61,793 nt of DNA from a bacterium (GCA_030690215.1 JAUYHD010000022.1:1-61793); one strand, 5' to 3'; shown: positions 1 to 8,733, counted from the stretch's first letter. The notes: a model not told the origin generated them from the sequence alone. Numbers and translations: made by a program.

Positions 1-136
1 AGTAAGTACTTAAAATCGCAAGGGATTTCGAACCTCCGTTTGGCCGCGCGCGAAGCGCGCGGAAACCCCATTTTGCCGTATGAGGCGGCGCAACGCGCCG
101 CCGAATTAGTCGGGGAAAAATCTGAAAGTTTGATAT

Positions 137-221
137 TGGTGCCGCCGGTCGGAGTCGAACCGACACGAGTTGCCTCACACGATTTTGAGTCGTGCGCGTC
201 TACCAGTTCCGCCACGGCGGC
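137..221 (-). tRNA. tRNA-Leu(CAA), type II with long variable arm, CCA encoded
   Basis: Minus strand reads GCCGCCG-TG-GCGG..CGC-G-CACGA-CTCAAAA-TCGTG-variable arm-GTCGG-TTCGACT-CCGAC-CGGCGGC-A-CCA. All stems pair by hand folding. Confidence 0.9.
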
Positions 222-227
222 ATTAAA

Positions 228-445
228 CGTACCCCACTTTTTGCTACGGGAAGTCGTGGTGAAATTGTATAAAATACAATTTCACCTACCGGTTCCGCCA
301 CTCCAGCATTTTGTACAGGAGGTCGTGGACAATGTATTTATCAAATACATTGTCCTACCATTTCACCACCTCGGCAAAATTGGTGGCGGGGTACATCTGC
401 CAGCTTGCCCCGAACACGGTCGAGGGGTTCCGCCACTCAGGCGAC
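228..445 (-). other. Three tandem tRNA-Leu-like 5' modules upstream of the intact tRNA-Leu, two with an AT-rich perfect hairpin replacing the D-arm 3' strand
   Basis: Minus strand has GCCGAGGTGGTGAAATGGTAG+hairpin(327-355)+CACGAC and GCTGGAGTGGCGGAACCGGTAG+hairpin(258-286)+CACGAC. A third unit, GAGTGGCGGAACCCC...CCCCGCCACCA, lies at 381-445. The intact gene reads GCCGCCGTGGCGGAACTGGTAGACGCGCACGAC. Confidence 0.6.
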
Positions 446-458
446 GTGTTGTGCTTTT

Positions 459-470
459 ATTGTATACCAA
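459..470 (-). promoter_or_regulatory. Extended -10 promoter (TGGTATACAAT) for the tRNA-Leu locus
   Basis: Reverse complement reads TTGGTATACAAT. The same TGGTAT-type motif precedes many units in this window. Confidence 0.45.
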
Positions 471-580
471 AAAAACATACAAAATCAAAACATTTGCACG
501 CTTGATGGGGGATGAATTTTTGCGTATACTGACTGCGGTTCTATATTTATACTTTTACAATATTTTTGAGAGGTGACGGA

Positions 581-1690
581 ATGCAGAGACTAACAGACGA
601 TACGGTGCGTAATCATCCGGATTTTGATAACCATATGATGGTTATTCATATTACTCGGGAGCGCTTCGGTTTGGAAGGAATAATCGCAATTCACGATACG
701 ACATTCGGAGACGCAACGGGCGGGACTCGCTTTTGGCCATACACATCCGTTTACGCCGCATTAAACGACGTGTTGCCGCTTTCACGCGATATGACATATA
801 AATCTGTCACTGCGAATGTGCCATGGGGCGGTGCAAAGTCGGTACTCATTGGGGACGCGGAGAAAGATAAAACGGAAGACATGGTTCGCGCGTACGCCTA
901 TTGTATCGAAAAGCTTCGCGGTCTTTTTAATACCGGGGAAGATATGGGGTTCCACGTACCTGATGTTGACATCATGGCAGAAATTACCAAGCATGTGTTC
1001 GGCCGTTCCGTAAAGGAGTATAAGGATGGCATCGTGGGAGGAGGCGATCCTTCGTTGAGCACAAAACACGGTGTTCTTTGCGGTATTCAGGTTGTTCTGG
1101 AGTTTTTATACGGAGATAAGAGTTTCAGAGGAAAGTCATTTTGCGTGCAAGGCGTTGGCGCTACCGGACTTCCTATCGCGAAAGCATTAAGCGAAGGCGG
1201 TGGGACGGTATTCATATCGGATATGAGCCAGCGGGCGATAGACAACGCGGTTAAAAATATAAACGCGCCAATCATCGTCGTGCCTCCAGGGATCGCGCAT
1301 AAAGTTTCCTGTGATGTGTTCGTGCCATGTGCCGGTGGGCGCGTTATAAATGAAAAAACGGTTGATGAATTTGATTGTCGAGCAATCGCGGGTTCCGCAA
1401 ATTGTATATTTACCAAATCAACCGCGCCATCCGCTGATTATTTGCATGCGATACGAAATATTCTTGTCGCGCCCGCGTATGTTATTAACGGCGGCGGGCT
1501 TATCCATATTTATCATGAGAAGATTGGATTTAATGCCGCAGCGGTACGGCGGGATGTTGAAAAAATAAGAGACCGCTTGATCCACATCTTTAAAGAAAGC
1601 GCATTACTCGGAAAGCCCCCGTACAAGATATCGGATGAGATAGTAGAGCGTAAGCTCCACGAAGAAGAAAGCAGACACATGAAACTGTAA
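581..1690 (+). CDS. Leu/Phe/Val dehydrogenase (Glu/Leu/Phe/Val dehydrogenase superfamily)
   Basis: IAIHDTT..GGTR, the catalytic-lysine region GGAKSVLIGD and the Rossmann motif VQGVGATG are collinear with leucine dehydrogenases as I recall them. GAGAGG RBS before ATG 581; the track start at 566 is a TTG. Confidence 0.85.
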   Translation: MQRLTDDTVRNHPDFDNHMMVIHITRERFGLEGIIAIHDTTFGDATGGTRFWPYTSVYAALNDVLPLSRDMTYKSVTANVPWGGAKSVLIGDAEKDKTEDMVRAYAYCIEKLRGLFNTGEDMGFHVPDVDIMAEITKHVFGRSVKEYKDGIVGGGDPSLSTKHGVLCGIQVVLEFLYGDKSFRGKSFCVQGVGATGLPIAKALSEGGGTVFISDMSQRAIDNAVKNINAPIIVVPPGIAHKVSCDVFVPCAGGRVINEKTVDEFDCRAIAGSANCIFTKSTAPSADYLHAIRNILVAPAYVINGGGLIHIYHEKIGFNAAAVRRDVEKIRDRLIHIFKESALLGKPPYKISDEIVERKLHEEESRHMKL

Positions 1691-8585: not shown

Positions 8586-8601
8586 TCCCGAAAATGAATA
8601 T

Positions 8602-8673: not shown

Positions 8674-8733
8674 TATTCATTTTCGAGGATCCTCGATATT
8701 TCAATAATATTTTTTTGATAAAGTATATCGGGA

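Follow-up and report, generated by a model that had tools for sequence, protein, structure and literature searches.

A tRNA-Leu(CAA) locus of an ultra-small groundwater bacterium that looks like layered remains left by mobile elements around a single functional gene

Fragments of tRNA genes left by integrating elements are well known and can mislead annotation (van der Gulik et al. 2023, PMC9897764), and for tRNA duplicates at attachment (att) sites Reiter 1989 and Williams 2002 are cited in that paper. In phage T4, SegB is a free-standing GIY-YIG homing endonuclease in a tRNA gene cluster, which promotes the inheritance of its own gene together with flanking tRNA sequence (PMC2330249), and split and permuted tRNA genes are present in Archaea (PMC3218864). 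In the literature searched, no description was found of nuclease/hairpin/tRNA cassettes in candidate-phyla-radiation (CPR) bacteria, nor of recombinases docking on tRNA CCA ends. Large serine integrases serve phages and integrative elements, including phiC31, Bxb1 and A118.

The locus compared here with these systems lies at the start of the window, meaning the whole stretch of 61,793 nucleotides that was analysed (GCA_030690215.1, JAUYHD010000022.1:1-61793). In this ultra-small groundwater bacterium, mobile elements seem to have left layer upon layer of remains around a single functional gene, so that the locus looks as if an essential gene had been invaded repeatedly. The minus-strand order is a promoter-like site, unit 1, unit 2, unit 3, the tRNA-Leu(CAA) gene and 136 nt to the window edge. 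The tRNA-Leu(CAA) (137-221, minus strand), with the acceptor stem GCCGCCG/CGGCGGC and an encoded CCA, was found by ARAGORN and by Rfam (RF00005, 57.9 bits), and is the sole complete gene of the locus. The sigma-70-like promoter TTGATT-18-TACAAT (488-459, minus strand; 9/12 matches) includes the TGGTATACAAT of the initial annotation, which lies at 469-459. No second promoter-like site stands upstream of the units, and no terminator-like site was found in window positions 1-700. All three units are 5' parts of tRNA-Leu, 0-37 nt apart, with no ORF between them. They are broken after position 16 (unit 1) or at about position 21 (units 2 and 3), and their acceptor 5' strands are all unlike, being GCCTGAG in unit 1 (relic A), GCCGAGG in unit 2 (relic B), GCTGGAG in unit 3 (relic C) and GCCGCCG in the intact gene, while the D-arm is conserved. 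The initial annotation had claimed three truncated tRNA-Leu-like 5' units in one orientation between a single promoter and a single intact gene; this was confirmed, and the coordinates that it states are all correct.

Other identities were considered for the module region. A T-box or riboswitch was rejected, with no match, and a coding gene was rejected as well, the minus strand holding short ORFs only and the long plus-strand frame being the untranslated run-on of a spare arm that is described below.

Unit 1 (376-445, minus strand) begins with the 5' piece GCCTGAGTGGCGGAAC (442-427), broken in the D-loop, and continues with a tail (426-376) made of an imperfect CCCC..GGGG hairpin and CCGCCACCA. 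The pairing segments GTGGCGG (436-430) and CCGCCAC (389-383), followed by CA, are present as first described. The 5' piece is identical in 16/16 bases to the intact tRNA-Leu(CAA) of Candidatus Niyogibacteria CG10 (L124:9675-9690), the genome that also has the one close homologue of the leucine dehydrogenase (LeuDH) next to the window locus (77% identity), on a contig syntenic with the window for LeuDH, two unknown genes, FtsH, tRNA-Ile(TAT), PrkA, DUF444 and SpoVR. Because it matches a gene that is still intact in a syntenic relative, unit 1 is of the ancestral type, a relic of the ancestral gene front left beside the promoter. The present intact gene differs from the L124 type at three acceptor positions, and both acceptor strands, the T stem and the variable arm are changed, indicating that the whole resident gene was exchanged. 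A further relative, from run X5, has a little-changed copy of 395-536.

No counterparts of units 2 and 3 were found at the tRNA-Leu locus of L124, the closest syntenic relative. Downstream of the L124 tRNA-Leu there are instead GC hairpins (TCCCGC..GCGGG type), a T-arm piece in inverted orientation, and the tRNA 3' end with its trailer, directly repeated. Since L124 lacks units 2 and 3 but bears other debris, the locus is labile, being struck more than once and in different ways in each lineage. With respect to LeuDH, the tRNA-Leu locus (137-445 versus L124:9675-9890) also has opposite orientations in the two genomes, and the orientation of unit 1 is that of the present gene.

Unit 2 (308-375, minus strand) consists of the 5' piece GCCGAGGTGGTGAAATGGTAG (375-355), a hairpin (355-327) and the tail ACGACCTCCTGTACAAAAT (326-308), and unit 3 (222-307, minus strand) consists of the 5' piece GCTGGAGTGGCGGAACCGGTAG (307-286), a hairpin (286-258) and the tail ACGACTTCCCGTAGCAAAAAGTGGGGTACGTTTAAT (257-222), which is the leader of the intact gene. 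Both hairpins (258-286 and 327-355) are perfect and AT-rich, with 13-bp stems and 3-nt loops, and are among the longest of the window, in which 44 hairpins of at least 9 bp were observed versus 1.35 in shuffles. Each has a D-loop piece, ...GGTAG, immediately before it and (C)ACGAC behind it. In unit 3, GTGGCGGAACCGGTAG (286-301) matches the GTGGCGGAACTGGTAG of the gene in 15/16 bases with one mismatch; matches of the GTGGCGGAACTGGTAG type with up to three mismatches numbered 2, versus 0.21 expected. The layout first drawn for unit 2 holds, except that the CTCC..GGAG hairpin assigned to its end overlaps the start of unit 3, whose 22-nt 5' piece occupies 307-286. Likewise, CACGAC does follow the hairpins, but it may equally be the anticodon-stem 5' strand, as had been claimed, or sequence of an inserted element, as in L077, where a tRNA-Leu relic is followed by a hairpin and then CACGAC and where the anticodon stem of the gene itself differs.

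The two units are homologous end to end and head to tail, sharing the 5' piece, the hairpin core TGTATTT, CACGAC and YTCCYGTA-CAA...AAT, and have diverged by about 30-50%, yet both hairpins are perfect. Unit 3 differs from the intact gene at 4/7 acceptor positions and at 1/15 D-arm positions. Functional genes from different lineages show this combination of high acceptor and low D-arm divergence, which neutral local decay is not expected to give, indicating that unit 3 derives from a functional gene. A BLAST search of about 230 other loci found no homologues of units 2 and 3.

The segments GATGTACCCCGC (397-386, unit 1 tail) and GTGGGGTACGTT (237-226, unit 3 tail) form a 12-bp inverted repeat, with G-T pairs allowed, which flanks units 2 and 3 and pairs in the predicted RNA fold; it could be due to chance or mark the ends of an inserted block. 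The AGGACAATGTATTT of unit 2 resembles the RBS and start of the L221 nuclease gene, AGGAACAATGTATTT, a resemblance of little weight in AT-rich sequence.

The same layout was observed in other genomes, both with and without a nuclease gene. In the nuclease-bearing cassettes a perfect hairpin interrupts a loop of a dead tRNA copy, whose intact counterpart lies beside it on the same strand, with an 80-aa GIY-YIG gene (PF01541) between the two. Nuclease-bearing cassettes of the 5' type were found in L206 (Ser), L215 and L221 (Tyr) and L220 (Ser), and those of the 3' type in L145, L224, L226 and L229; their hairpins are GC-rich with stems of 6-8 bp. Among the contexts of GIY-YIG homologues, cassettes were found at tRNA-Ser and tRNA-Tyr, and none at tRNA-Leu. 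On the Patescibacteria contig L220 (1059-1864), two tRNA-Ser genes are each accompanied by a 14-nt 5' piece and the same double-hairpin segment, with 340 nt to the intact gene in the copy that carries an 83-aa GIY-YIG gene and 93 nt in the copy without it. Since the same double-hairpin cassette occurs there in both forms, the nuclease-free cassette of L220 derives from a nuclease-bearing one.

Nuclease-free relics that break off where the D-loop ends lie in front of tRNA-Leu in L077 (Peribacteria) and L002 (Parcubacteria) and in front of tRNA-Ile in L179, and a nuclease-free relic also precedes tRNA-Leu in L072 (Bacteroidota). In the latter, a Phaeodactylibacter sp., an exact 30-nt duplicate of the leader and the tRNA 5' part, broken after GGTAGAC, lies 150 nt upstream of tRNA-Leu(CAA), and because of this duplicate the phenomenon reaches beyond CPR. 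Breaks cluster in the D-loop, as seen in the window units, L220, L206, L221, L179 and L077. In a 20-nt scan partial copies were found for 8/95 tRNAs of CPR loci versus 1/134 of non-CPR loci, and with a 12-nt seed for 9/106 of CPR loci, in a comparison whose CPR loci were chosen through the mobile-element arm and are a biased sample. A scan of genome contigs with the tRNA-Leu(CAA) pattern covered mostly Proteobacteria and about ten CPR loci.

On balance, the locus is probably explained by serial replacement of the gene through hairpin-capped cassettes, with the units as its stacked relics. Transcription from the promoter at 488-459 would read through about 225 terminator-free nt, RNase P would free the mature 5' end at G221, and units 1-3 would be discarded leader, neither tRNA halves nor independent genes. 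Each unit would be the front of an earlier resident tRNA-Leu gene, of type A (GCCTGAG, the intact type of the nearest relative), B (GCCGAGG) or C (GCTGGAG), severed in or just after the D-loop and displaced upstream on the arrival of a hairpin-capped cassette with a fresh tRNA-Leu. The replacement series is predicted to run from A to B to C to the present gene. Units 2 and 3 may stem from nuclease cassettes whose nuclease genes have since been lost, and the relics may persist because they are placed between the only promoter and the gene. Serial replacement predicts an allele in which units 2 and 3 are absent and the promoter and GCCTGAGTG lead straight into an intact gene of the GCCTGAG type. 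The dead 3' parts that it also predicts would be invisible here because the LSR (large-serine-recombinase) element described below and the window edge intervene.

Several observations stand against serial replacement. No nuclease gene or remnant is present in the locus, and neither a motif scan nor a profile search seeded with the L145 protein found a GIY-YIG gene or recognisable fragment in the window. The hairpins are AT-rich with 13-bp stems, as opposed to the GC-rich 6-8-bp stems of the nuclease cassettes, and no other copy of them was found. The leader is not duplicated, unlike in L220, L077 and L072. In addition, hairpins that are perfect despite the divergence of their units point to selection for pairing or to two recent independent insertions, as old neutral relics should show mismatches. 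A tentative variant, which we regard as doubtful, is that selection still acts on the 29-nt hairpins of units 2 and 3 as cis sites, which would form a hairpin subfamily not yet described and be recognised in trans by a structure-specific nuclease, with the essential tRNA gene being repeatedly overwritten by minimal selfish cassettes that carry their own replacement copy; if so, the locus remains a live target.

The same lack of a nuclease gene, the hairpins unlike the GC hairpins of nuclease cassettes, and the head-to-tail homology of units 2 and 3 throughout their length would also fit an origin by in-place tandem duplication or slippage of the 5' part of the gene, with the hairpins added by a small, unrelated palindromic insertion element or by fold-back repair of a break, and no replacement cassette or foreign copy involved. 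Such an origin is unlikely, however. The four acceptor 5' strands differ while the D-arm is conserved, which argues for four functional source genes and not for one decaying gene. The intact gene is unlike the ancestral type in both acceptor strands and the T stem, which argues for exchange of the whole gene, and in L220 a nuclease-free cassette of the same layout is shown to derive from a nuclease-bearing one.

Pairing selection on the two 13-bp hairpins, which their perfection despite strong unit divergence resembles, would be expected as well if the units were maintained RNA parts, either as scaffolds for processing or stability, giving RNase III, RNase E or RNase P a site of entry or shielding the RNA by a hairpin, or as decoys for a tRNA-Leu-specific protein. 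All units lie in sense orientation in one transcription unit with no terminator, the X5 relative retains the unit 1 tail, and the 231-nt leader folds far better than shuffles (z = -4.6). But this z-score comes almost wholly from the two palindromes, on which a permissive Rfam search gave chance miRNA-like matches and nothing else, and the sense orientation is automatic under serial replacement too. The units also have no counterpart in the closest syntenic relative and no homologue in about 230 loci, and they are missing in a second sample with an identical flank. The modules at 225-433 occur in run X1 only, and a search for RNA runs containing the stretch had no hits; in run X2 of the same study a contig is identical over 434-1200 and ends at 434, inside unit 1, and nothing at least 90% similar to 225-433, the present tRNA or the arm was found in that run. 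This suggests a strain difference between X2 and X1, with a strain without the modules, low coverage being the alternative. A maintained RNA function is accordingly quite improbable.

Split or trans-spliced tRNA halves joined to 3' halves elsewhere, as in Nanoarchaeum, are scarcely credible here: the units do end near tRNA structural boundaries, and at the Ile locus of the window a 5' half and a 3' half bear complementary TCCCGA and TCGGGA beside the break, but an intact gene with the same anticodon is present, no T-arm with a complementary acceptor 3' strand for units 1-3 was found in the 61.8-kb window, the stretch taken for a 3' module downstream is the arm of a recombinase element, and the host is bacterial (FtsH, RecG, sigma-70-type promoters), bacteria to our knowledge lacking the archaeal splicing endonuclease. 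The proposal of functional 5' modules awaiting their 3' halves thus failed, with units 2 and 3 absent from the relative and from other loci, no 3' halves in the window, and the modules in run X1 only.

The initial annotation had also extended the organisation of one intact gene plus partial copies to the Ile and Ser loci of the window, and an independent scan does find partial 5' copies at both; the same scan found no partial copy for the window tRNA-Arg. A TTTTTTGGTACTATAAT similar to the tRNA-Leu promoter lies upstream at the Ser locus. The intact tRNA-Ile, in the window as in L179 (complement of 2243-2319), is enclosed by a long helix of leader and trailer that prolongs the acceptor stem; in the window CGAAAATGAATAT pairs with ATATTCATTTTCG (8588-8600, 8674-8686). 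This helix may be a processing stem or a cassette boundary.

The segment downstream of the intact gene is a terminal arm of an LSR mobile element, of the 'spare arm' type (1-141, plus strand), whose frame 1 reads SKYLKSQGISNLRLAAREARGNPILPYEAAQRAAELVGEKSESLILV. A peptide search with SKYLKSQGISNLRLAAREARGNPILPYEAAQRAAELVGEKSESLILV gave at least 131 relatives in JGI metagenomes at 66-94% amino-acid identity; an exact 39-mer from the downstream hairpin region had no match in JGI metagenomes. Positions 1-136 had been proposed as a tRNA 3' module, which was not borne out, as they are a conserved LSR arm in the plus-strand frame: the two GC hairpins (84-102 and 44-62) and the T-loop-like GGAGGTTCGAAATCCC (22-37) all lie inside the arm, the hairpins encoding AAREARG and AAQRAAE and the motif encoding GISNLR. 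The arm is joined to the tRNA 3' end in a shared core TGGTG (137-141), exactly at CCA. In several relatives the arm abuts tRNA-Leu, Arg, Lys, Ala or Tyr, and the TGGTG-core junction was also observed at tRNA-Leu(GAG), tRNA-Leu(TAA), Arg, Ala and Tyr. Free arms run on as ...TGGTGCGTTTGTTTGACGAAATCCGAACC, a mimic of an antisense-read tRNA 3' end, and tRNA-adjoining arms switch to tRNA sequence within TGGTG. Contig pieces covering 12-68 and 40-141 were found in other runs without this organism, and in the source sample these pieces also occur in the free-arm context.

In L202 and L201 the arm forms the C-terminus of a Resolvase + Recombinase + Zn_ribbon_recom protein, whose frame runs antisense into the tRNA. 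The complete anatomy is seen in L195, where a tRNA-Arg lies on the plus strand and a 503-aa recombinase (Resolvase, Recombinase and Zn_ribbon_recom domains) on the minus strand, its C-terminus ...KEIFGSNLRL...ESLILVRP abutting the tRNA, and where an inverted 'spare' arm (FLIRQSKYLKSQGISNLRL...ESLILVRLFDEIRTFFERN) stands directly upstream of the recombinase start. The window arm aligns to this spare arm and starts with SKYLKSQGI, the spare-arm form, in the same configuration as in L134, L179 and L181. From these alignments, an LSR element appears to have integrated exactly at the CCA end of tRNA-Leu, seen here as an arm only, with its gene expected to the left of position 1.

These LSR elements have two inverted arms, namely the C-terminal end of the recombinase gene and the 'spare' arm (window 1-141; L195:4397-6183). 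In the window, L134, L179 and L181 it is the spare arm that meets the tRNA; in L195 and L201-L204 it is the gene arm. Such a two-arm arrangement resembles an inversion switch by which the enzyme would lose or regain its last 14 or so residues. Beyond the junction, plus-strand frame 1 remains open for 147 codons, to 574, just before the LeuDH start (window 1-576), crossing the antisense tRNA, units 3 to 1 and the promoter (shuffle test, P = 6.5e-4); the run-on in other integrated copies is 5-40 codons.

If serial replacement is right, even single essential tRNA genes of streamlined CPR genomes act as hot spots where mobile DNA of at least two kinds settles, a hairpin-capped replacement cassette and a recombinase element docking on the CCA end. 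The dead fronts would preserve the order of replacement because they are trapped between promoter and gene, so that selfish-element turnover and horizontal exchange of tRNA genes would become directly readable. Annotators may take such relics for split tRNAs, tRNA-like regulatory RNAs or extra tRNA genes.

Compared with the known systems, the locus shares with att-site fragments the partial dead tRNA copies beside an intact copy, as a by-product of mobile DNA. Classical att fragments, however, are 3' parts lying kilobases away across an integrase-bearing island, whereas here three 5' parts are stacked 0-37 nt apart in the leader with no integrase between, and units 2 and 3 each bear a perfect hairpin. 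A classical att duplicate was itself tried as an identity and rejected (wrong tRNA end, no island). With archaeal split tRNAs the locus shares 5' pieces ending at structural boundaries, and differs from them in the presence of an intact gene, the lack of partner halves in the window, a bacterial host and no bulge-helix-bulge context. Descriptions of SegB, a multi-domain phage enzyme, mention neither hairpin caps nor nested dead tRNA copies, and nuclease action at the present locus is putative. With the GIY-YIG cassettes the locus has in common a dead copy of the same isotype broken mostly in the D-loop, a perfect hairpin at the break and an intact copy on the same strand; it differs in having no nuclease gene, AT-rich 13-bp stems, an unduplicated leader and three layers. 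The downstream element belongs to the same domain family (Resolvase, Recombinase, Zn_ribbon_recom) as phiC31, Bxb1 and A118 and likewise has a precise junction with a short shared core. Unlike them, elements of the window type have their attachment inside the 3' end of the recombinase gene and at the CCA ends of many tRNAs, and carry a second, inverted 'spare' arm, which in the window is the one joined to the tRNA.
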